A DNA stretch of 64,000 nucleotides, taken from contig DJVR01000064.1 in the NCBI GenBank assembly GCA_002441285.1, positions 313 through 64,312 of the forward strand, written 5' to 3'. A program made the translations under genes and the position numbers. Below the pieces are notes generated by a model. That model did no database searches, had not been told where the DNA came from, and was given only the letters and a program-made list of their open reading frames with translations. Shown piece after piece: positions 1 to 28,959 of the stretch; positions within the stretch are counted from its first letter, which is position 1; every line of letters starts with the position of its first letter. The stretch comes from Candidatus Atribacteria bacterium UBA6251 (GTDB lineage: Bacteria; Atribacterota; Phoenicimicrobiia; Phoenicimicrobiales; Phoenicimicrobiaceae).

Positions 1-3000
1 GTCTAAAATTAAATTAAGATCAGCCTTTCTTAAAATAGGATTAATTACCCTGCTTATCGGATTAATAGTTACTGGTGCTTACTTAACCATTCGAAGTAAT
101 CTAGCCAGAGAAGAGCTTAAAAGATTGATTGCTGTTCAATTAGAAAAGATTATGGAGCGGGGCATCTATATCGGGAAGATTAAAAATTATTCTCTGCACT
201 CTTTAACTATATCCGATTTTAGAATCTATAGAGATAAAAATTTACAAGCAGAAGATTTGATCTTTTCTGCTGATGAAATGATAGCTAATTATAACCTCGA
301 TCTTTTTTCTGCTCTAAAAAAAGAGACTGGTTTGTTGCTTGAAGATATTACTTTTAGACAAGCAGAAATGACTCTAATTAGGGATCAAAAAGGAGTTTTT
401 GATTTTCCAGAAAAATTTAACCTTCACCTGGATAAGTTTCCAGTATTTTATCAGGTAAAAAAGATTAATTTTCAGGATAGTACACTAAATTACTTAGATT
501 ATTTTACCACTAAGGAAGATGGACTTTGTATTTTAGCAGATTCGGTACAGGGATATTTTAATCTGAGTAATTTGCCCAGGATAGAATTTAATATTTCTGG
601 ATTAAGAAGGGAAGACCAAAGCCCTTTGACTATTGGTGGACAATTTTTTCTTAATTCCTCTAACTATTCTCTGGACTTTACCCTTAAAGAAGCAGAAATT
701 AGTCATTTTCAATATTATGTAAAAGATGCCAGTATATTAAATCTAGAAAAGGGAAAGTTTGACCTTAATTTACATCTTGTTCATAATGAAGAAAATACTC
801 CAGCAGAGCTTATGCAAACTGGAGAAGCTTCTTTTAGAGAAGTAGAATTCTCCCCTGCATTTTTTGGAGGATTAAATTTTCATCAAGCAGAAGGAAAACT
901 TACCTTAAATAATCAAAAGATAACTTTGCAGCAGCTTAAAACCTTCTATCAAGATTCTCCTTTGGTTTTAAGTGGAAAGATTAACTATGATGACCAGGGT
1001 ATAGATTATCATTTAAATCTTAGCTCTAATAATTTTTCTTTAAGCGATTTAGAAGAAGGTTTACAAGAAAATTTTGCTTTTAATTCTGAGCTTAATGTTG
1101 CCGGTACTTCTCATTTAAGGATGGAAATAATTGGTTCATCAGATACACTACAGTTTCAGGGTAGTCTATCCAGTGCGCAGCTAAAATTAGGTGGATATGA
1201 TCTCTTTAAGATGAATACTGACTTTTCTTATGCTCAAGATGTTTTCTATTTAAAAAATTTTGAGGCGGAAGTAGAAAATGGCAAAATAAATGGGAAAGGA
1301 AAGATAATTTCGCTGAACCATCTACCTCAATATAATCTTTCTTTTCATCTAGAAAAGATAGATTCTACCAACCGCTTAATTGCTAATCTTCCTTTAAGTC
1401 TTTTAAAACAAGGTTTATGTTCAGCTGAAGTTGAAATTAATGGTGGGTTGAATTGGGAAGAAAAAATTAATCTTTTCCTGAAAGGAGAAATAGCTAATTC
1501 TTCAGGGACAACCTCCCTTCTAGCTAATGGTTTTATTTTAGAGGGGAACCATCTTAATCTATATGTTGAATGTTCTGGAATTGATCTTAAGGAATGCGGT
1601 AAAATAATTCCTGAGCTTGAGCTTTTTGGAAAGGCTAATTTTAGCGGTGAAATTAAAGGTGTTCCAGAAGATCTAAAAATAAATGGTAATCTAAAAATTA
1701 AAGAGGCTCAAATAGCCAAAATTCCTCTTAATAACTTAGAGACCCGGATAGATTATCAAGCCCATCAAGTAGAATTACAGGATATATTTCTAAAGAATGA
1801 CGGCTTAATAGCAGATGGGAAGGGGAAAATTATTTTTATTGAAAATCAAGGTATCAAGACAGATCTTAATTTTCAAGTCGAAGAGCTGGGTTTAAATTAT
1901 CTTAACCAGTTTATAAGTAAGGAGAATCTCCCTTTAACTGGTAAGGCCAAGGGAGACCTTAAATTACAGGGAATTGATTCAGCCATTACTGCTCAGGGAA
2001 ACTTAGAAATTTGCGATTTTGCAATCGCAGATTTTAAATTTAATTCTGCAGACCTAACCTTTGATTATCAAGAGGGAAAGATAATACTAGATAAAGTTTT
2101 GCTTAATTCCCCAGGAGGTGCTCAATGTTATGCTCAAGGAGACTTAGATTTATCTTCCGAATCTCCCTTGAATTTAAGGATAAATTTCTTAAAGCAAGAT
2201 CTTACCGCTATAATTTCTAATTTTATTAATTTAAAAGAGTTACAAACGATAACTGGGCGGGCTACAGGTTCCCTGGAGATAAAAGGTGACTTAAAATCCC
2301 CTGATTTTACTCTAGCTTCTGTCGTTGATTTTGCTCGGGTAGGGGAAATTCCTTTAAATTCTATAGAGATAAAGGCAGAAAAGATCGGTGAGGTGATTAG
2401 CATAAATAATTTGACTCTGCATCAAAAAAAGGGTAAGTTTACTGCTCAGGGATGGATTGATTTAAGAGAAGATAGGCATAATCTAGGAATTTTACTTAAT
2501 GCTGACCAGGTAGATTTAAAACAATTAAATGATATCTTTGGTTTTACAGAAGAGATTGAGGGTTTAGTGAGCCTGCATGCAGAAATAAATGGTCCTTTTA
2601 ACTCTCCCTATATCTCTATCCAGGGAGATATAAAACAGGGCAAGGTTGCTGATTTTGGGTTTGAAAAATGCAGCATAGATGCCTTATATGAGCAAAATAT
2701 TTTACAGATTAAAAGTTTTAATTTAGAGAAGGAAGGGCATCTTATTCAAGGAACAGGAAGGATTCCTTATAAATTTTCTCCGGGAAATAAGGAAGAAACA
2801 GTTACCAGCCTTGCTGATCTTCCTCTGGATTTTAATTTACTGATGCAGAATATGGAATTAAGTCTATTGGAACTATTATTCCCTCAAGAAATTAAACAGA
2901 TTCAAGGAAGAGGTAATATTTCTTTACAGCTTTCTGGGAGCTTTAATCAACCCATCCTTAATGGAGTGATTTCCTTACAAGTAAGCGAAGCAGAATTTTA

Positions 3001-4147
3001 CTCTTTGTCTAAAAAAATAAATAATTTAAATGCCTCTCTAGAAATAAAAGATAACTTGGTTAAAGTAAAAGAAATGGATTTTTTGGTAGATAATTTTAAG
3101 CTAAATACTGCCGGTACTCTAGTTTTAGAAAAATGGAACCTTCAGGATATTAGTTTAGATCTCTGGACAGCTGAAGAAGCATTTGCCTGGCAGGATATCT
3201 TTCAGGCTCAGGTTAAACTCCAGGCCAGGATAGAAGGTTCCCTTAAGGCAGCCCATCTTTCTGGAAATTTAGTTATTGCCCAAGGGAAGATTAACTGGAC
3301 TACCATTAATCAGAATATTTCATTTCAACCGGATCAGCTTTTTACCCCTTTAGCTGGTTTATCGGGTGATGTTGATTTAGAGATAGAAATTGTTGATGAT
3401 CTTCAGGTAAGAACCTCTGATATTGATTTAAAATTAGGCGGTATTACCAAGCTGCAGGGTGATTTAACTTCTCCCCGTTTTAATGGGGAATTGAAAATTA
3501 AACAGGGATATGTCTCCTTTTTAGATAAGAGTTTCAGAATTTCCAGTGGTAGATTATTATTGGTTGATTCTACAGGAGATGATATGATATTAGATATCGA
3601 TGCACGAACTAAAATTGATGATATAGAGGTATTATTAAAAATAAGCGGTATTTTAGGACGACCAGTTATGACTTTGAGTTCTTCTCCTTCGCTAAGTGAA
3701 GGGGAGATTGTCGCTTTATTAATGTTTAATAAAAATTATGCCGGGCTTACTCAGGGAGAATTAGAAATAGTTTTACAGGAAGAATTAATCAATTTAATTG
3801 CTCAGGGGTTAAGTATAAGATTTTTGAACCAATTGGAAAATAGAATAGCAGAATCTTTAGGTTTGGATGAATTTAAAATAGAAACTATTTTCCAGAAAGA
3901 AGAAACAGATTCTAGTTTTAGCCTTTTTCCTGATTTTAGTTTACAATCTTTAGCTTTTAAATTAGGTAAATATTTTACTGATAATTTCTATTTCAGTTAT
4001 TCTATGCCTTTATTGGAAATGGGTTTGGGAGAGCTGGAACTAGAATTTAAATTAGATGAAGATCTAACTTTTAGCACTAAACTTGATTCTTTAGGTTTAC
4101 AAAAGAATGAATTTGAAGTAAAATTTGAGTTAAACTATGAGTTTTAA
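1..4147 (+). CDS. tamB: TamB-like translocation/assembly module protein (C-terminal DUF490-type), 5' end outside window
   Basis: The ORF track starts at 125, but the same frame stays open back to nt 2. There it encodes a hydrophobic N-terminal anchor (FLKIGLITLLIGLIVTGAYL), so the true start is at or left of the window edge. The protein is >1300 aa, repetitive and beta-rich. The C-terminal block LSSSPSLSEGEIVALLMFNK is typical of TamB. It lies directly upstream of bamA. Confidence 0.8.
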   Translation, partial: SKIKLRSAFLKIGLITLLIGLIVTGAYLTIRSNLAREELKRLIAVQLEKIMERGIYIGKIKNYSLHSLTISDFRIYRDKNLQAEDLIFSADEMIANYNLDLFSALKKETGLLLEDITFRQAEMTLIRDQKGVFDFPEKFNLHLDKFPVFYQVKKINFQDSTLNYLDYFTTKEDGLCILADSVQGYFNLSNLPRIEFNISGLRREDQSPLTIGGQFFLNSSNYSLDFTLKEAEISHFQYYVKDASILNLEKGKFDLNLHLVHNEENTPAELMQTGEASFREVEFSPAFFGGLNFHQAEGKLTLNNQKITLQQLKTFYQDSPLVLSGKINYDDQGIDYHLNLSSNNFSLSDLEEGLQENFAFNSELNVAGTSHLRMEIIGSSDTLQFQGSLSSAQLKLGGYDLFKMNTDFSYAQDVFYLKNFEAEVENGKINGKGKIISLNHLPQYNLSFHLEKIDSTNRLIANLPLSLLKQGLCSAEVEINGGLNWEEKINLFLKGEIANSSGTTSLLANGFILEGNHLNLYVECSGIDLKECGKIIPELELFGKANFSGEIKGVPEDLKINGNLKIKEAQIAKIPLNNLETRIDYQAHQVELQDIFLKNDGLIADGKGKIIFIENQGIKTDLNFQVEELGLNYLNQFISKENLPLTGKAKGDLKLQGIDSAITAQGNLEICDFAIADFKFNSADLTFDYQEGKIILDKVLLNSPGGAQCYAQGDLDLSSESPLNLRINFLKQDLTAIISNFINLKELQTITGRATGSLEIKGDLKSPDFTLASVVDFARVGEIPLNSIEIKAEKIGEVISINNLTLHQKKGKFTAQGWIDLREDRHNLGILLNADQVDLKQLNDIFGFTEEIEGLVSLHAEINGPFNSPYISIQGDIKQGKVADFGFEKCSIDALYEQNILQIKSFNLEKEGHLIQGTGRIPYKFSPGNKEETVTSLADLPLDFNLLMQNMELSLLELLFPQEIKQIQGRGNISLQLSGSFNQPILNGVISLQVSEAEFYSLSKKINNLNASLEIKDNLVKVKEMDFLVDNFKLNTAGTLVLEKWNLQDISLDLWTAEEAFAWQDIFQAQVKLQARIEGSLKAAHLSGNLVIAQGKINWTTINQNISFQPDQLFTPLAGLSGDVDLEIEIVDDLQVRTSDIDLKLGGITKLQGDLTSPRFNGELKIKQGYVSFLDKSFRISSGRLLLVDSTGDDMILDIDARTKIDDIEVLLKISGILGRPVMTLSSSPSLSEGEIVALLMFNKNYAGLTQGELEIVLQEELINLIAQGLSIRFLNQLENRIAESLGLDEFKIETIFQKEETDSSFSLFPDFSLQSLAFKLGKYFTDNFYFSYSMPLLEMGLGELELEFKLDEDLTFSTKLDSLGLQKNEFEVKFELNYEF

Positions 4148-4184
4148 GTAAAATATAAAAATAACCCTCCAGGAGGAATAAAGA

Positions 4185-5936
4185 ATGAAAAAGAAAAAGT
4201 TCAAGTGGTTTTTATGCTGTTTTATTTTAGTGAACGTATTTTTAGTTAGTATTGTTAATTCTACCTTAGCTCAAACCAATAATCAGGGCAAGATTACAGC
4301 TATAGTGGTAGAAGGAAATGAAAACGTTGCCAAGGATTTAATTATATCTCAAATATCTTCTAATCTGGGGGATGTTTTTTCTAAGGAAAATCTGGAAAAA
4401 GATATGAAGGCTATTTATGATCTGGGTTATTTTCAGGATGTGAAAATTAAATTAGAATCATTTAGAAATGGTTATAAAGTAGTATTTACAGTGATAGAGA
4501 ATGCTATTCTTAAAGATATAAAGTTTTCAGGTAATACTATAGTATCCGAAGAAGAGATGAGGGAAGTAATGATTGTGAAGGAAGGACAGATTCTTTCTTA
4601 TAAAATATTGAAGAATGATTTGGAACGTATCTCTCAACTTTATAAAGAGAGGGGTTACCTATTAATCGATTTTGCCAAGGTTGATTTTAGCCAGGAGGGA
4701 ATTTTAAGTATAGAACTTATCGAAGGGCGATTAGAGAAGGTAGCAGTAGAAGGAAATGACAAGACTAAAGAGAAGGTTATTACTAGAGAAATAAACCTGA
4801 AAACTGGTGATCTTTTTAATTTTGAAAAAGCAAAGAAGTCTCTTCAGAATATTTATAATCTGGGATTTTTTGAGGATGTGAGTATGAGGTTAGAGCCAGG
4901 AGAAGAGCCAGAATCTGTAATTTTGGTAATTAAGGTTATCGAAAAAGATACTGGTAAAATTGGAGTTGGAGTCGGATATAATACCGAAGAAGGATTAATG
5001 GGCTTTGCCGAATATGCTGAAGAGAATCTTTTTGGAGGAGGACAAAAACTACAAGCAAAACTGGAAATTGGGGGACGTACTACTTATAAATTTTATTTTT
5101 TAGAACCCTGGTTTGCCAATACTCCAACTTCGGTGGGGGTGGAGGCTTATGACAAGATTATCACCCGAGAAAACAAAGAAGGATCTACAGTAATTGGTGA
5201 ATATGATCTGGAGAGATTGGGAGGGAGACTAATTCTGGGTAGGAAGATAGGAGAATCCTTCAACTTAGGATTAGAATTAAAGAGTGAAAAGGTAACCTAT
5301 GAATTAGTTTCTGGAGAATTACCTGAAGATATTAATGAAGGATGGACTAATACCCTTACTCCGACCCTTTCTTATGATACGCGAGATAATGTATTCGAAC
5401 CTACTTCCGGATGGTTTCATAGTCTTTCTATAGAAAAAGCTGGTGATTTTTTAGGAGGAGATTATAGTTTTACTAAATATAATTTAACTTTACGGGCTTA
5501 TATTTCTACTAAATTTATTACTGATATATTTGATTTAAGAAGTTTAGAAAGCATTACCAACAAACTAAGCGAAGGAGTGTTAGCTCTGCGAGCAGCAGGT
5601 GGAATTGCCGATACCTCTTTACCTTCTTTTGCTGAGTATCAGGTAGGCGGGATGAATACTTTGAGGGGTTATGATTTTAATCAATTCTCCGGTGATAAAT
5701 CCCTGGTCTTTAATCTAGAATATAGGATTCCCTTGACGGATAGTTTTCAAGCAGTTATCTTTGCGGATTGGGGACAGGCTTGGGATTATTCAGAGGCTTT
5801 CAATCTGGAAGACCTAAAATTTGGGAGAGGATTAGGATTTCGTTATGAGACTCCTTTAGGACCGATTAGATTTGATTATGGCATCAATGAGGAAGGAGAA
5901 GGAAAGAGTTACTTTAGTATAGGTCATACTTTTTAA
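4185..5936 (+). CDS. bamA: Outer membrane protein assembly factor BamA (Omp85 family, POTRA repeats plus beta-barrel)
   Basis: Signal peptide, POTRA-like repeats (ITAIVVEGNENV..., LEKVAVEGNDKTKEKVI...), an Omp85 barrel and a terminal aromatic residue (...FSIGHTF). RBS ccaggagg lies upstream. Confidence 0.9.
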   Translation: MKKKKFKWFLCCFILVNVFLVSIVNSTLAQTNNQGKITAIVVEGNENVAKDLIISQISSNLGDVFSKENLEKDMKAIYDLGYFQDVKIKLESFRNGYKVVFTVIENAILKDIKFSGNTIVSEEEMREVMIVKEGQILSYKILKNDLERISQLYKERGYLLIDFAKVDFSQEGILSIELIEGRLEKVAVEGNDKTKEKVITREINLKTGDLFNFEKAKKSLQNIYNLGFFEDVSMRLEPGEEPESVILVIKVIEKDTGKIGVGVGYNTEEGLMGFAEYAEENLFGGGQKLQAKLEIGGRTTYKFYFLEPWFANTPTSVGVEAYDKIITRENKEGSTVIGEYDLERLGGRLILGRKIGESFNLGLELKSEKVTYELVSGELPEDINEGWTNTLTPTLSYDTRDNVFEPTSGWFHSLSIEKAGDFLGGDYSFTKYNLTLRAYISTKFITDIFDLRSLESITNKLSEGVLALRAAGGIADTSLPSFAEYQVGGMNTLRGYDFNQFSGDKSLVFNLEYRIPLTDSFQAVIFADWGQAWDYSEAFNLEDLKFGRGLGFRYETPLGPIRFDYGINEEGEGKSYFSIGHTF

Positions 5937-6026
5937 ATAAATCATTTAGTTAGTTGATTTAAGTTTAAACCTGAACCAACTAACCAGTTAAGAAAATAAT
6001 TAACCAAAAGAAATTTAAGGAATAAA

Positions 6027-6581
6027 ATGGAGGAAAATATGCAAACTTTGGGAAAAACATTAGTTAACAAAGTAGTAGTTATGGTATGGTTGTTAATTCT
6101 GACTATAGCTTTATGCTATAACGGAGCAGAAGCAGCGACCGCAAAAATTGGTTATGTAGATCTAACCGTAATATTAGCCCAACACCCCTATTCTCAAAAT
6201 ATCAAACAACTTACCCAGAATTTAGAAGAAGAACTAAAGAAGAGACAGGAGGAATTAAATAAACAGGGTAAAGGATTAGATGAAACAGAATTAAAAAAAT
6301 TAGAAGAGAAGTTTAACAGTGAATGGGAACCCATAAAACAAAAGATTTTATCCGAGATACAATCTTACCAGGCTGCCCGCTATGCTAATATCATAGAATC
6401 GATTAAAGCCGTAGGAGAAAACGGGAAATATGATTTAATATTAAGCAGCGAAATAAATGTTTCTTTGAGCAGTACTAGTCTGAATTATCCGATCATCCTC
6501 TATGGAGGAGAAAATATTACCCAGGATGTAATTAACGAAGTGTTAAAAAGGGTAGAAGAAGAACAGAAGGCAAAAAAATAA
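6027..6581 (+). CDS. skp: OmpH/Skp-like periplasmic chaperone
   Basis: 184 aa with an N-terminal signal/anchor and a lysine/glutamate-rich coiled coil, in the conserved position immediately after bamA. The start could instead be the internal ATG at 6039. Confidence 0.7.
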   Translation: MEENMQTLGKTLVNKVVVMVWLLILTIALCYNGAEAATAKIGYVDLTVILAQHPYSQNIKQLTQNLEEELKKRQEELNKQGKGLDETELKKLEEKFNSEWEPIKQKILSEIQSYQAARYANIIESIKAVGENGKYDLILSSEINVSLSSTSLNYPIILYGGENITQDVINEVLKRVEEEQKAKK

Positions 6582-6585
6582 ATTA

Positions 6586-7014
6586 ATGCAAATAAAATTA
6601 TCTATTCGGGAAATTGTAGATCTCTTACCCCATCGTTATCCTTTCTTGTTGGTAGATAAGATTATAGAACAAGAAAAGGATAAGATAGTGGGATTAAAAA
6701 ATGTAAGTAGTAATGAACCTTTTTTTTCAGGACATTTTCCGGGGTATCCAGTTATGCCGGGGGTACTGATTATTGAAGCTATGGCTCAGGTGGCTGGAGT
6801 ATTAATGTTTTCCCGGGAGGAAAATAAGGGAAGGATTCCTCTTTTAGTGGGCATCGATAATGCTCGCTTTAAGAAACAGGTCTTTCCGGGAGATCAATTA
6901 ATTCTGAAAGTTGAAATTATTAAGCAAGTAAAAGGTGTTGGTAAGGCTCGAGCAGAAGCTTTTGTAGATCAAACTTTGGTCGCCTCTGCCAATCTTATGT
7001 TTACTACTATGTAA
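6586..7014 (+). CDS. fabZ: 3-hydroxyacyl-ACP dehydratase FabZ
   Basis: Canonical hot-dog motifs: LPHRYPFLLVD and GHFPGYPVMPGVLIIEAMAQ. Confidence 0.95.
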   Translation: MQIKLSIREIVDLLPHRYPFLLVDKIIEQEKDKIVGLKNVSSNEPFFSGHFPGYPVMPGVLIIEAMAQVAGVLMFSREENKGRIPLLVGIDNARFKKQVFPGDQLILKVEIIKQVKGVGKARAEAFVDQTLVASANLMFTTM

Positions 7015-24971: not shown

Positions 24972-25553
24972 ATGGATGAACTTAAAATTATTGAGCTTTG
25001 TCTTCTGGGAAAGACCCAATATTTTTCCCGGTTAATTGATAATTATCAACATATGATCTTTAACTTAGCTTATCGGATGAGTAATAATCTCCAAGAAGCG
25101 GAGGATATTGCCCAGGAAACTTTTATTAAAGCCTTTCAGCATCTGAACCATTTTAATCCTAACTATAAATTCTCTACCTGGCTTTACCAGATTGCCTTAA
25201 ATATTATGCGAGATAAATTTAAAAAAAAGGAAATACATCCTTATTCTCTGGACACTCCGAAAGAAGGAGCAGATACAGAATCTTTACCTCCCGAACCAGC
25301 AGACCATACCCATAATCCGGAATGTATTCTAACCCAAAAAGAAGAAACTGAACTAATTCAAAGGGCAATTAATGCCCTCCCTTTAAAATATAAAGAAGTA
25401 ATTATCCTGCGACATATTCAAGACTTATCTTATCTAGAAATTGCCCGTATTCTAAAATTGCCAGAAAGCACAGTAAAAATACGCCTCTTCCGTGCTCGTG
25501 AACAATTGAAGCAAGAGATTGAAAAAGAGGGGAGAGGCTGCTTTTTTGATTAA
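24972..25553 (+). CDS. ECF (group 4) sigma-70 family factor
   Basis: Region 2 (AEDIAQETFIKAF...FSTWLYQIALN) and region 4 (ILRHIQDLSYLEIARILKLPESTVKIRLFRAREQL). Confidence 0.9.
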   Translation: MDELKIIELCLLGKTQYFSRLIDNYQHMIFNLAYRMSNNLQEAEDIAQETFIKAFQHLNHFNPNYKFSTWLYQIALNIMRDKFKKKEIHPYSLDTPKEGADTESLPPEPADHTHNPECILTQKEETELIQRAINALPLKYKEVIILRHIQDLSYLEIARILKLPESTVKIRLFRAREQLKQEIEKEGRGCFFD

Positions 25554-25591
25554 TTTTAAAAAATAACCTCTACCCTTTTTTATCCTTTTTT

Positions 25592-25619
25592 TGTAACTTT
25601 TCTCTTAATTTTTCGTAAT
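25592..25619 (+). promoter_or_regulatory. ECF-type promoter candidate (TGTAAC-N16-CGTAAT) upstream of the anti-sigma gene
   Basis: tgtaac (25592-25597), 16-nt spacer, cgtaat (25614-25619). The 12-mer TGTAACTTTTCT is identical to that at 27717. Confidence 0.6.
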
Positions 25620-25715
25620 ATATGGTGAAGAGAAAAGGAACCCTAAAGCCAAAGAGGGAAGGGCAAAAAAATTTAAGTCTTTCCAAAGAATAAAAATTAG
25701 AAAAAAGATGAAAGA

Positions 25716-26405
25716 ATGAATACCAGAATGGATTGTATAAAAATTAAAACGCTACTAAATGAATATATAGAACAGCTTACTAATGAGGATTCTACTAATC
25801 AGATAAAAGAGCATCTTCGCTCCTGTCCATCTTGTCAACAGGAATATCAAAGGTTGCAAAAATTAATCTCATCCCTGCGCAGTTTTACTCCTCAGGAAGC
25901 ACCTGCAGACTTCACCGAAAAGGTGATGGCTAAGATTGCTCAAGAAAAAATAGAAATTGATCCTTCTTTCTGGAAGGAAATAAAAAGAAAGATTACGGTA
26001 CCTCTACCTTCTTTGCCTTCTTTGCGGGTTATGGGAGTATCTAGCGCTCTCATTGTTGTATTTTTATTTTTTGCTTTTAATTATCTCTTTAAACCAGTAG
26101 AAATAATCCCTCTCTGTTCAGCGGAAGTAAAGTTTTCTTTGCGGGTAGGGGATAACCAACAGATTCATACCATTGCGATTGCTGGTGATTTCAATAACTG
26201 GGATCCTCAGGCAAATATCTTGCAGGATTCCGATGGTGATGGCATCTGGACAGCTACCTTAAAACTACCTCCCGGTAGATATGAATATATGTTTGTTTTA
26301 AATGGAGAAAAGTGGTTGCCTGATCCCAATGCCCTACGTTACGTCAAAGATGGTTTTGGGAACAGGAATGCTATCTTAGAGGTAAATAATTGTAGCTCAA
26401 CTTAA
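25716..26405 (+). CDS. Anti-sigma factor: zf-HC2 N-terminus, one TM helix, extracytoplasmic CBM48/AMPK-beta-like glycogen-binding domain
   Basis: HLRSCPSCQQEY zinc-finger motif and TM helix VSSALIVVFLFFAFNYLF. C-terminal IAIAGDFNNWDP...GIWTATLKLPPGRYEYMFVLNGEKWLPDPNA is typical of E-set/CBM48 modules. Confidence 0.8.
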   Translation: MNTRMDCIKIKTLLNEYIEQLTNEDSTNQIKEHLRSCPSCQQEYQRLQKLISSLRSFTPQEAPADFTEKVMAKIAQEKIEIDPSFWKEIKRKITVPLPSLPSLRVMGVSSALIVVFLFFAFNYLFKPVEIIPLCSAEVKFSLRVGDNQQIHTIAIAGDFNNWDPQANILQDSDGDGIWTATLKLPPGRYEYMFVLNGEKWLPDPNALRYVKDGFGNRNAILEVNNCSST

Positions 26406-26478
26406 TCTCAATCTGAATAGGTAAGTTATTCGGTTATTTTGTTATGGTTATCTTGACTAAAAGAAATGGGTAAATAGA

Positions 26479-27483
26479 ATGACAAAAAAGATCCTTAAAG
26501 CTAACAACACAATAAAATTAACTTTAATAAATTCAATTATTTTAATCATTTTAGTCTCTTTGACTACCACTGTTCTTTCTGCTGCAACAGAAGGAGGAGA
26601 TCCAGTTATTGAACAACAATTAGCACAACTAAAAGATATTTTAGATAATTCCTCCTCTTATAGTGAATTCCAGAAGAATCAGATGCTTCTACCAACTTTG
26701 CAGAAGATCTTAGCCAGTGGTATTTCCTTTGAAGAGACTAATGAAATAGTGGAAAAAGGGGTAAACAATTCCTTTGATGCTTATAATATGAAAAAGATTC
26801 TAGATATCCTTCAGGAGACTAAAGAAGAAGATTTGCCAGTAGAACCCTTGATCAATAAAATAAACGAAGGATTAGCTAAAAATGTAAATAAGACTACCTT
26901 AATTTCAGTAATTTCTAAAAAGGCAGAAAATTTGAAAAAAGCTAATGAAATTTTAAGGGCAGCCGAGCAAGAAGGCTTAAAAATTGAAGATGGTGAGGAA
27001 GTCATCAGGATTATCGGGGATAGTCTGGAAAATGATGTCCCTGCCGAATCTTTATCCTGGCTAATTAAGACCGGATTAAAACAGGGGAAGAGCTTAGAAG
27101 AGATTACCGAAATTAGTGATGAACTGGGATATTTAAGTTTAATGGCTTATGATGCTGGCCTATCTTCTGATAAGATAAATCTCTTATTTAATCAATCCAT
27201 AGAAGGCAGTATATTAGTCGAAGAGATATGCGTAACTATTCAAAAGAATTTAGAAGCAGAAATTGCCTTAAATACTATGGGAGGGAATGGAACCAAACCT
27301 TCCTCTCCTGCCAGTGGAGGAGCAACTTTACCTACCTCACCCACTGAAGCAGTGAGTGGCTTTACTGATATGGGAGGAACACCTGCACAAGAGGCAGGAG
27401 AAGCCCCTACCGAAAGTGGTAGTGCTCCTATACCCTCTGAGCCATCTGAAGAGGAGAGCCCAACTCCACCACCGGAAAACTGA
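26479..27483 (+). CDS. Secreted all-helical protein with Pro/Ser/Thr/Gly-rich C-terminal tail
   Basis: Signal/anchor, repeated helical modules, and a C-terminal low-complexity tail (GTKPSSPASGGATLPTSPTEA...PSEPSEEESPTPPPEN). Confidence 0.6.
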   Translation: MTKKILKANNTIKLTLINSIILIILVSLTTTVLSAATEGGDPVIEQQLAQLKDILDNSSSYSEFQKNQMLLPTLQKILASGISFEETNEIVEKGVNNSFDAYNMKKILDILQETKEEDLPVEPLINKINEGLAKNVNKTTLISVISKKAENLKKANEILRAAEQEGLKIEDGEEVIRIIGDSLENDVPAESLSWLIKTGLKQGKSLEEITEISDELGYLSLMAYDAGLSSDKINLLFNQSIEGSILVEEICVTIQKNLEAEIALNTMGGNGTKPSSPASGGATLPTSPTEAVSGFTDMGGTPAQEAGEAPTESGSAPIPSEPSEEESPTPPPEN

Positions 27484-27716
27484 TTAATGAATGTGATTTT
27501 AATCACTATGTGCTCCTTGACAAAAGAATAACTAAGTCAATATCAGGAAAGATTTTAAATTAAAAACTTATCTTAGCACAAAGATAATTCGCTTATCTGG
27601 TGATCTTATAATAATCTTCTTTAAGCTTAATTAACCAGATACACTGTTTTATGGTTTAACATTGCCTGGTGATTATCTTAACAGCTAAATTAGTTAATCC
27701 ACTAACTAACTAATTA

Positions 27717-27744
27717 TGTAACTTTTCTTGACTTTTCTCGTACT
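27717..27744 (+). promoter_or_regulatory. ECF-type promoter candidate (TGTAAC-N16-CGTACT) upstream of the Cys-rich lipoprotein gene
   Basis: tgtaac (27717-27722), 16-nt spacer, cgtact (27739-27744), with the same TGTAACTTTTCT core as 25592. A sigma70-like alternative overlaps it (TTGACT 27728, 17 nt, TAGTAT 27751). Confidence 0.55.
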
Positions 27745-27870
27745 ATTTATTAGTATTTATTTAGTTACTTAGTTAAATAGTTAAAAATTTAATTAATTTC
27801 TTATATTAGGCAAGTTATCTTTATTTTAACTAATTAGTTAACCAATGACTAATAAATGATTATACAGTGG

Positions 27871-27967
27871 TAGTTTCTTCCCGTGCGAGGTCGACGTGCG
27901 GTAGGATTGCTTATGAAATAAAGCATAAAATAATAACTACTCATAAGCCAAGAGTTTAAAGAAACTA
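27871..27967 (+). ncRNA. Candidate structured 5' leader (three-way junction), class unknown
   Basis: P1: UAGUUUCUU (27871-27879) pairs with AAGAAACUA (27959-27967). P2: CCGUGCG-AGGUCGA-CGUGCGG (27881-27901). P3: GCUUAUGA (27909-27916) pairs with UCAUAAGC (27941-27948). A GC-rich patch in an otherwise very AT-rich spacer, about 90 nt upstream of the ATG at 28054. Confidence 0.45.
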
Positions 27968-28053
27968 TTAAAAAAAAAGAAATTAGATTAGTTAATTTCG
28001 CGAAATTAAATAATTAAAAGATAAATGACCTTAAAAAATGAAAGGAGAAAGAA

Positions 28054-28959
28054 ATGAAGAAACTATTCTTGTTGTTATTAGTTGTAGCCTTAGCCGCCTT
28101 CTTATTTGTCGGCTGTATTCCTGTAACTCCCGGAGAAGGTGAAGGAGAAGGTGAAGGAGAATTAGAAGTAACTATAACATTTGAGAATGAATATACTGAT
28201 GCTAAGGGGGTAACCTTTATACCATGTTCTGGCGAGGTAACAGTTACTTTATCGGCTCCTGTAGCTGTAGATAATGTCGTATATGTTGCATTGAAAGAAG
28301 ATGATGGAGACTATGATTGTTCTGAACCACTTACTCCTAATGCCGATCGGACAGTCTGGACTGGAGATTATACTCCAAACATATGCTCTCCTAGCATTGA
28401 TGAGTGCGAACCGTTCTGTGTAGTCGCCCTAGTCAAACATCCCTGCTGCCCCGGTGAAGAGGTTGCCCTAAAAGTAGTGAGAGCGGATTGCACACCACCT
28501 ACACTTGACCTTTTTGTTAAATTTTCAGATTGTACTGATCCTTGCGTAGATCCAGACCCTTGTGTCGAACCATTTGCGGGTGTATCTATGGAATGGACTA
28601 GCAGAACTACCAGTCTCTGCGAGACTACCGATTGTTGTGCAGATAACTGTTCCGGAGTTGGTGGCTGGAGCCTGGTGATAGATCCAGATGAGTGTGAAGG
28701 CCCATGTGATACTGTAGAAGGAACTGGTTGTCATGTAGAAGGAGAATTAGGGTGTGAATGTTTTGCCTATGCTGACACAGGTGAAGTCTGCTACATCATT
28801 GAATTCACTCTCGAAGATAATGTAGGAAATGCAGTTGAAAGCAAGTGGGAACTTTGCTTAGATACCGATTCCGTGGTTTCATTCTCTATAGTCGATGGAG
28901 ACACATTAACTGCAGATTCTGAAGGTTGGTACACAGTTTACAATGATTGTCAACCTTAA
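28054..28959 (+). CDS. Cysteine-rich acidic lipoprotein (24 Cys), unknown family
   Basis: Lipobox LFVGC followed by a (GE)4 linker. 23 further Cys occur in CxxxC, CC and CxC spacings (DECEPFC, HPCCPG, DCTDPCVDPDPC, DCCADNC, DECEGPC, GCEC). Visibly higher G+C and biased codons, with the strong RBS aaaggagaaag. Confidence 0.8.
   Translation: MKKLFLLLLVVALAAFLFVGCIPVTPGEGEGEGEGELEVTITFENEYTDAKGVTFIPCSGEVTVTLSAPVAVDNVVYVALKEDDGDYDCSEPLTPNADRTVWTGDYTPNICSPSIDECEPFCVVALVKHPCCPGEEVALKVVRADCTPPTLDLFVKFSDCTDPCVDPDPCVEPFAGVSMEWTSRTTSLCETTDCCADNCSGVGGWSLVIDPDECEGPCDTVEGTGCHVEGELGCECFAYADTGEVCYIIEFTLEDNVGNAVESKWELCLDTDSVVSFSIVDGDTLTADSEGWYTVYNDCQP

Follow-up and report, generated by a model that had tools for sequence, protein, structure and literature searches.

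The leader of a cysteine-rich lipoprotein gene in Atribacterota contains a three-way-junction RNA domain (27870-27968, + strand). This domain belongs to an RNA family that is real, new and well supported, that lies in cis as a leader, and that has a narrow phylogenetic range. The evidence comes from the minimum free energy (MFE) fold, from covariance models and from covariation among homologues. All positions are those of the window, the 64,000-nucleotide stretch of DNA that was analysed.

A covarying three-way junction

On the + strand, helix P1 joins 27871-27879 with 27959-27967, P2 joins 27881-27887 with 27895-27901 and includes two G-U pairs, and P3 joins 27909-27916 with 27941-27948. P2 is capped by L2, a 7-nt loop with the sequence AGGUCGA (27888-27894). 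J2/3 occupies 27902-27908, a conserved AAAUA (27917-27921) directly follows the 5′ strand of P3, and J3/1, CAAGAGUUUA, extends over 27949-27958. The first-pass annotation had drawn these three helices on paper, and RNAfold returns exactly the same pairs as both the MFE and the centroid structure of 27871-27967. It had also placed the fold in an island of G+C inside an AT-rich spacer of 570 nt, and this description holds, with a GC content of 73% at 27880-27905, compared with 25.6% for the spacer overall and 23% outside the motif. A 26-mer from this island is unique within the window and within the genome. Taken from the window sequence alone, the folding signal is modest. The energy of 27871-27967 is −22.0 kcal/mol, against −15.7 ± 3.1 for shuffled sequences (z −2.05), and 5 of 200 shuffles equal it. 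What makes the fold convincing is the comparison with homologues. No open reading frame of at least 40 amino acids in the ORF list overlaps the fold on either strand, and the indels in the motif are not multiples of three, so that a coding function was rejected.

Homologues were found in the window's own family (f1) and in a sister family (f2), both in one order of Atribacterota, and in metagenomes. By BLAST, the region from the fold through the start codon (27869-28060) is 70-76% identical in several f1 genera, and the mature part of the lipoprotein is unalignable among the same relatives. A covariance model built from 10 BLAST-found sequences (R1) finds the motif in 14 of 30 f1 genomes and in 12 of 22 f2 genomes, and one pattern scan together with R1 yielded 57 further copies from metagenomes, for a total of 89 matches and 77 distinct motif sequences. 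A second model, R2, trained on both f1 and f2, gave no match in 34 genomes from five other families of the phylum. As far as we searched, the leader RNA family is confined to one order of Atribacterota.

The genome from which the window derives, a 1.7-Mb, 79%-complete MAG, has a single copy of the motif, which led us to reject a within-genome repeat. This copy is a divergent member of the family, scoring 84.9 bits with R1 and 78.3 with R2, where typical f1 copies score 100-118. It is without the 2-nt J1/2 and without the inner hairpin P3b (GGAGC/GCUCC), which most f1 copies carry and which f2 also lacks. The inner three pairs of its P2 have been replaced, two by changes on both sides and one by a change from A-U to G-U.

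Two matches come from MAGs labelled Methanosarcinales (contig of 35% GC) and Desulfobacteraceae (about 50% GC), the contig of the latter carrying type II secretion genes beside a leader-driven ice-binding gene, and both likely reflect mis-binning or horizontal transfer. Numerous copies of the leader sit at most a few hundred bases from a contig end, many of the matches within 300 nt of one (G001:C65:34, G014:C85:281, G040:C39:180, G040:C56:121 and others). For this reason the cassette of promoter, leader and signal peptide seems to break assemblies, and the copy numbers are accordingly underestimates. Some of the genomes in which the motif appears to be missing probably represent assembly breaks at the repeated cassette.

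Covariation was evaluated in an alignment made by MAFFT without regard to structure (A4; 36 sequences, at most 88% identical). When P1, P2 and P3 are imposed on A4, 92.2% of the cells form standard pairs, against 34-46% when the partner strand is slid by 1-3 columns. The first-pass annotation had proposed collecting homologous leaders and looking for compensatory changes, and these were found, with changes on both sides in 18 of 25 pairs. None of 500 shuffles attained any of the five measures. Given A4, RNAalifold recovers P2 and P3 unaided, with 12 of 15 pairs compensatory, and in an alignment fitted to the model (A2) 90.3% of cells are paired and 23 of 32 pairs are compensatory. Over both alignments 90-92% are paired, against 34-52% in slid controls. 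P1, P2 and P3 each covary across 36-89 related sequences. The differences between the families illustrate the point: in P1, GUAG/CUAU in one corresponds to CUGG/CCAG in the other; the closing pair of P2 is C-G in 21 sequences and G-C in 14; and in P3, UUAUGA/UCAUAA corresponds to CUGUAA/UUACAG. Thus the absence of conserved or covarying helices, which the annotation had named as the outcome that would speak against its proposal, is the opposite of what was found across the two families. Because G-U pairs are frequent (one P1 pair, for instance, is U-G in 22 of the 36 sequences), the functional strand is the + strand RNA.

The unpaired positions are nearly invariant, namely the AGGUCGA of L2, the AAAUA adjoining the 5′ strand of P3 and, in J3/1, the purine run AAGAG. 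L2, together with a linker and palindrome block further downstream, is at least 95% invariant while the stems vary. A mutual-information scan for a pseudoknot or tertiary partner of L2 produced no credible non-nested pair and was dominated by the split between f1 and f2. L2 could pair with GACCU at 28036-28040, but only in the window; this pairing is not conserved and was set aside.

The fold corresponds to no known RNA family in the searches that we made. With Rfam 15 and cmscan at E≤10 under permissive filters, the region 27400-28200 gave three chance-level matches at other places in the spacer, none of which overlaps 27866-27972, and the entire window gave no match at the gathering thresholds. 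The covariance-model search that had been recommended thus bears out the earlier description of the element as an unclassified structured RNA. ARAGORN found no tRNA-like element or tmRNA gene at 27500-28200. In the literature we found no paper on RNA motifs in Atribacterota, nor any that ties Atribacteria lipoproteins to the leader.

Promoter, spacer and translation start

Upstream of the junction, on the + strand, a match to an ECF-sigma-type promoter, GTAAC-N16-CGTA (27718-27742), overlaps a sigma-70-like promoter, TTGACT-N17-TAGTAT, detected by a consensus scan at 27728-27756. On the other side of the junction lies the ribosome-binding site. As the annotation had it, the element is therefore placed between promoter (27718-27756) and RBS (GGAG, 28044-28047). 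The pattern GTAAC-N16-CGTA has two matches in the window (27718-27742 and 25593-25617), where 0.29 are expected by chance. The second of these lies between the genes for an ECF sigma factor and an anti-sigma factor and has no three-way junction behind it. Among 52 f1-type copies of the leader, AAC-N16-CGT occurs within 300 nt upstream in 35; the reverse strand has 1 and shuffles lead one to expect 2.0. The f1 form of the promoter is TGAAAC-N16-CGTA overlapping TTGACT-N17-TAGTAT, 60-260 nt before the junction. The promoter block of the window, GAAACTTTTCTTGACTTTTATCGTATTATTTATTAGTAT (about 27711-27774), has 82-90% identity to its counterparts in other genera, and the spacer that follows is unalignable. 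The f2 copies keep TTGACT-N17-TATAAA about 22-30 nt before the junction, the junction begins some 15-25 nt after the predicted transcription start, and AAC..CGT is absent from most of them (2 of 17 have it). An ECF-type promoter class fits the window, which has both the motif and a nearby sigma/anti-sigma pair, and the gene may depend on such a sigma factor. A search of the genome with the promoter pattern gave four matches, two in the window, one in dnaA that is due to chance and one before a transporter-like gene, and the definition of a regulon in this way was dropped as uninformative.

The AU-rich spacer between promoter and junction (27757-27869, + strand) is variable, with a length of 60-260 nt in relatives and a sequence that is not conserved. 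Within it, at about 27826-27858, are degenerate short repeat units, TTAACTAATTAGTTAACCAATGACTAATAAATGA. Most f1 copies have short tandem arrays directly upstream of the junction (the last 45 nt or so in L026, L024 and L126), whose units differ from lineage to lineage: (CTAACGA)n, (AATTGGT/GATTGGG/AATCGGT)n and (AACTGGN/AACCGGC)n. Similar tandem units are present in f2, upstream of the promoter. They may form an array to which a protein binds, at the level of DNA or of RNA. The window also has an AT-rich inverted repeat of 33 nt (27745-27777 with 27825-27857, 79% complementary) that overlaps the −10 region, and in some f1 relatives the corresponding position, immediately behind the promoter, is occupied by GC-rich hairpins. 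Seven copies that precede genes for proteins other than lipoproteins (L031, L033, L034, L037, L038, L039 and L040) share another block 100-250 nt upstream, composed of a terminator (AGCCCTTTGGC...GCTGAAGGGCTTTTT) and then AAAGAAGGATTTTTAA-N-GTCGTATATA. The latter may be a second type of promoter.

In every case the motif lies 55-120 nt upstream of a Shine-Dalgarno (SD) sequence and ATG on the same strand, and the order of elements after P1 is an A-rich linker, a hairpin (P4) and palindrome, an A-rich stretch, GAAAGGAG and the ATG. In the window, P4 is predicted by RNAfold to pair GAAAUUAG (27979-27986) with UUAAUUUC (27992-27999) on the + strand. Its place in the leader is preserved although the arms differ, being GAAAUUAA/UUAAUUUC in f1, GAGAAAUU/AAUUUCUC in f2 and AAAGGUAA/UUACCUUU in a group of leaders before ice-binding genes, and variants with G-U wobbles exist (GAGGAAUU/AAUUUCUC). 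The mean z for the P4 region is −2.5 over 52 distinct segments. An inverted repeat at 27992-28009 (+ strand) forms a perfect 18-nt palindrome, TTAATTTCG/CGAAATTAA, which is an alternative hairpin. Since in f1 its 5′ arm is shared with the 3′ arm of P4, the two are mutually exclusive, and either alternative may form. The linker and palindrome block is at least 95% identical over 30 distinct f1 copies. Pairing of the palindrome is retained by a compensatory change in L031 (AACUUC/GAAGUU) and by G-U wobbles in L037 and L121. The downstream palindromes are perfect and of even length in both families (TTAATTTCGCGAAATTAA in f1, GAGAAATTAATTAATTTCTC in f2) and have the half-sites GAAATT/AATTTC in common.

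Two further features of this region may be mentioned. After P4, some 25-40 nt past the motif, all 19 distinct f2 copies have an invariant box, AAAAUCCAUGGAAAA (e.g. L057 and L054), which contains the palindromic UCCAUGGA and an AUG without an SD; the frames that begin at this AUG are not conserved. In L078, which precedes a DUF4386 gene, the first 20 nt past the motif are CAGAAATTAAATAAC and there is no P4 hairpin. This copy looks like the product of recombination between two direct GAAATTAA repeats with loss of the shared middle strand.

The RBS of the window, GAAAGGAG, and the ATG at 28054 together occupy 28040-28056 on the + strand. The RBS and the first 20 or so codons, which encode the signal peptide MKKL...FVGC, are conserved along with the leader. 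The predicted accessibility of the SD is heterogeneous, with an unpaired probability that ranges from 0.04 to 0.94 and averages 0.44.

Genes behind the leader

The gene downstream (28054-28959, + strand, from the ORF list) encodes an acidic, Cys-rich lipoprotein of 301 amino acids. Across the family, 74 downstream ORFs were readable and 59 of these (80%) encode lipoproteins with a signal peptide of the form MKKLL...(F/L)(V/A)GC, 51 of the 59 having an acidic linker such as (EG)n, (DP)n or similar. Five more encode Ice_binding-like proteins (PF11999) with a Sec signal. The others include PspC (PF04024), a LiaF/LiaI-like membrane protein (PF22570 LiaF-TM, PF18917), three DUF4386 membrane proteins and a small DUF308-like protein. 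Two of these, PspC and the LiaF-like protein, belong to the classical effectors of envelope stress. The common theme is thus envelope, exported or membrane proteins and not one pathway, and the gene set does not point to a single metabolite or ion. In genome G014 two copies are homologous across the stretch from motif to ATG only and precede unrelated genes, so that the leader behaves as a portable module. In one copy (L067) an IS-type transposase gene, with weak HTH_32 and rve_3 matches, is inserted 247 nt past the motif, where a lipoprotein gene would normally stand. The leader is also found before Ice_binding-like genes that adjoin GspC/D/E/F in DNA of about 50% GC (L050 1-8000; L117; L083 1-3000). 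L083 is elsewhere about 35% GC, and L050 comes from the Desulfobacteraceae-labelled MAG. These loci represent either a horizontally acquired island, into which the native leader cassette was recruited, or an error of binning.

Upstream in the window, at 24972-26405, are the genes for the ECF sigma factor (24972-25553) and a zf-HC2 anti-sigma factor. The order of the locus is ECF sigma, an anti-sigma with zf-HC2 and CBM48/AMPK1_CBM domains, a protein of about 330 amino acids that has no Pfam match and ends in an acidic, Pro-rich tail (SPPPEN), then the leader and the lipoprotein gene. The locus is syntenic in both families, being present in the window and in the f2 genomes G028 and G034; the coordinates of the four-gene order are 24972-28959 in the window, 2911-6683 (minus strand) in L187 and 2299-6051 in L188.

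Possible roles of the leader RNA

We consider the chances about even that the three-helix leader RNA is a specifically recognised module, read by a protein, the ribosome or an RNase, that sets the stability or translation of envelope mRNAs. The transcript probably starts at the promoter at 27718-27756, as suggested by the conservation of that promoter. The leader would then be about 290 nt long and would comprise in turn the variable spacer, the autonomous junction, the A-rich linker, the AU-rich hairpin and palindrome, the A-rich stretch and the RBS. The junction would be a stand-alone, constitutively folded recognition domain whose invariant AGGUCGA loop and junction purines serve as the contact for a protein, or perhaps for the ribosome or an RNase. 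Specific recognition is implied by the invariance of the loop and junction nucleotides. Reading of the junction would set mRNA stability or translation for an ECF-linked set of envelope and envelope-stress genes, and the junction would not switch in response to a metabolite by rearranging a terminator or hiding the RBS. However, conserved junction and loop nucleotides are equally to be expected of a ligand-binding aptamer, and the mutually exclusive hairpins at 27979-27999 and 27992-28009 could be a switch. The uneven accessibility predicted for the RBS also counts against a recognised module.

An alternative is a new riboswitch class, in which the junction would be an aptamer for an envelope-relevant small molecule or ion and would act by way of the competing AU-rich hairpins, of Rho or of access for RNases, and not by a classical terminator. 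Several features fit, including the covarying three-way junction in a 5′ UTR with its near-invariant junction and loop nucleotides and, in f1, the two hairpins that share a strand directly after P1. Of the generic features of riboswitches, the covarying domain in the 5′ UTR is present, but no expression platform was found and the gene set is not directed at a single compound. No terminator-like site was found at 27300-28300 and the AU-rich hairpins are without a proper U-tract, so that terminator-based attenuation was rejected. A second possibility was raised by RNAfold of the full leader, in which GGUAGUUUCUU, the 5′ strand of P1, forms a helix in f1 with AAGAAAUUAUU (codons 2-5) and in f2 with a UUAAGAAAC box immediately ahead of the SD, a complementarity that would favour a switch. 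In a cross-partner duplex test, however, the local 3′ partner of P1 was better than partners from other P1 classes by 3.0 kcal/mol in 95% of sequences, whereas the advantage of the start-region partner was only 0.24 kcal/mol, in 55%. In the P1 variants GGUCUCAA and GGUCACAA the local strand is altered and the distal box is not. Masking of the RBS or start by the P1 5′ strand was therefore rejected, as this pairing, unlike local P1, shows no co-evolution, and we regard the complementarity as incidental, a result of MKKL codons and of leaders rich in A and G. No SD-masking helix that covaries with an aptamer helix was found, and neither of the competing hairpins (27979-28009) extends as far as the RBS. 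P3b was considered as an anti-SD, since many f1 copies offer GGAG/CUCC, but it is not a conserved platform because it is absent in the window's own copy and in f2. The gene set, moreover, is structural or related to envelope stress and lacks metabolic or transport logic, the distribution is limited to one order, and there is no Rfam aptamer match, even a weak one. A riboswitch thus seems to us possible but unlikely. In the absence of a terminator or a covarying RBS-masking helix, a recognised module that governs stability or translation is favoured over a classical riboswitch. The first-pass annotation had offered either a new cis-regulator or a protein-binding leader; the cis position of the element upstream of the RBS is conserved and the RNA is unclassified, as it proposed, and the riboswitch version of the idea is the weaker one, since no expression platform was found.

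A stable fold might also act passively, by obstructing decay, whether 5′-to-3′ or endonucleolytic, or by bringing processing to a stop, and so give abundant envelope proteins long-lived mRNAs with no specific partner. A long structured leader, with no switch elements, before a presumably abundant lipoprotein is what one would expect from such an arrangement. The proximity of the junction to the predicted transcription start in f2 agrees with it as well, as do the GC-rich hairpins that some f1 copies add right after the promoter. We nevertheless judge it rather unlikely, for a barrier needs no invariant 7-nt loop, no conserved junction purines and no linker and palindrome block that is at least 95% invariant across genera while the stems drift. 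In addition, a simple protective hairpin at the 5′ terminus is disfavoured by the distance between promoter and motif, which varies from about 20 nt in f2 to 60-260 nt in f1 and is highly variable within f1.

A more specialised proposal makes the junction a device dedicated to the mRNAs of envelope proteins, either as a sensor, in the form of a new riboswitch for an envelope-derived signal, or as an address tag, in the form of an RNA "zip-code" for recognition by a factor associated with membranes or secretion. This is a distinctly doubtful idea, but if it were true, an ECF envelope-stress regulon would be linked through the leader with post-transcriptional control or with the localisation of its messages.

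It is very improbable that the motif exists as a small RNA in its own right, or that it is a ribozyme whose self-cleavage would trim the variable 5′ spacer. Hammerhead-type ribozymes are likewise compact three-way junctions with conserved unpaired nucleotides, and the upstream spacer is variable and dispensable. On the other hand, there is no terminator between motif and ORF, the spacing to the RBS is fixed, and no ribozyme or small RNA in Rfam matches at E≤10. For the self-cleaving ribozymes (hammerhead, twister, pistol and hatchet) Rfam gave no match, and on reading the sequences the hammerhead core CUGANGA/GAAA is absent from the alignment.

That the element works solely as DNA, its palindromes and repeats serving as operators for a DNA-binding regulator and its RNA fold being incidental, is barely conceivable: the perfect, even-length palindromes with common half-sites downstream of the junction would suit such a role, but the junction helices covary and tolerate G-U but not A-C, so that only RNA pairing explains P1-P3, and the palindrome variants likewise change by G-U-compatible transitions. 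The palindrome may have a role as a DNA operator in addition to its role in RNA.

Atribacterota are abundant in subsurface sediments, are almost uncultured and are known for unusual internal membranes; we know of nothing that has been established about post-transcriptional regulation in this phylum. The present analysis defines a new RNA family on the basis of 77 distinct sequences and provides two calibrated covariance models for it. It links an ECF sigma/anti-sigma locus with multi-copy acidic, Cys-rich surface lipoproteins and with PspC- and LiaF-like envelope-stress proteins. The family offers a handle for annotating Atribacterota genomes, for defining the envelope regulon of an uncultured lineage and for testing how a portable promoter-leader-signal-peptide cassette drives the expression of surface proteins. 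If a ligand or a binding protein were found, it would define a new class of regulatory RNA.

The leader may be compared with three kinds of known system. With the purine (RF00167) and TPP (RF00059) riboswitches it shares a location in the 5′ UTR, three covarying helices, conserved junction nucleotides and a size of about 100 nt. It differs from them in having no Rfam match, no expression platform that we could find and downstream genes that are not devoted to the metabolism or transport of one compound. Like the leaders of ribosomal-protein genes, such as the three-way-junction mimic bound up with S15, it is an autonomous domain with conserved loops, upstream of the RBS and without a terminator. 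In those systems the products bind RNA, whereas here they are lipoproteins and membrane proteins and not RNA-binding proteins, so that autoregulation by the product is unlikely. Finally, a 5′ UTR with a stabilising or regulatory role is found in the mRNAs of some abundant envelope proteins, among them E. coli ompA and slpA, which encodes the S-layer protein in Thermus thermophilus and Lactobacillus; the Thermus slpA leader is bound by proteins, and the stabilising effect of the ompA leader needs a 5′-terminal hairpin. Our leader resembles these in being long and structured, in preceding the gene of an exported and presumably highly expressed envelope protein, and in having independent stem-loops and a strong, free RBS but no terminator. 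There is no homology to them in sequence or structure, and in place of their hairpins we find a covarying three-way junction with an invariant loop which, unlike the ompA element, would lie 20-260 nt from the predicted start. A further difference from ompA and slpA is that the leader described here is common to several unrelated envelope genes.
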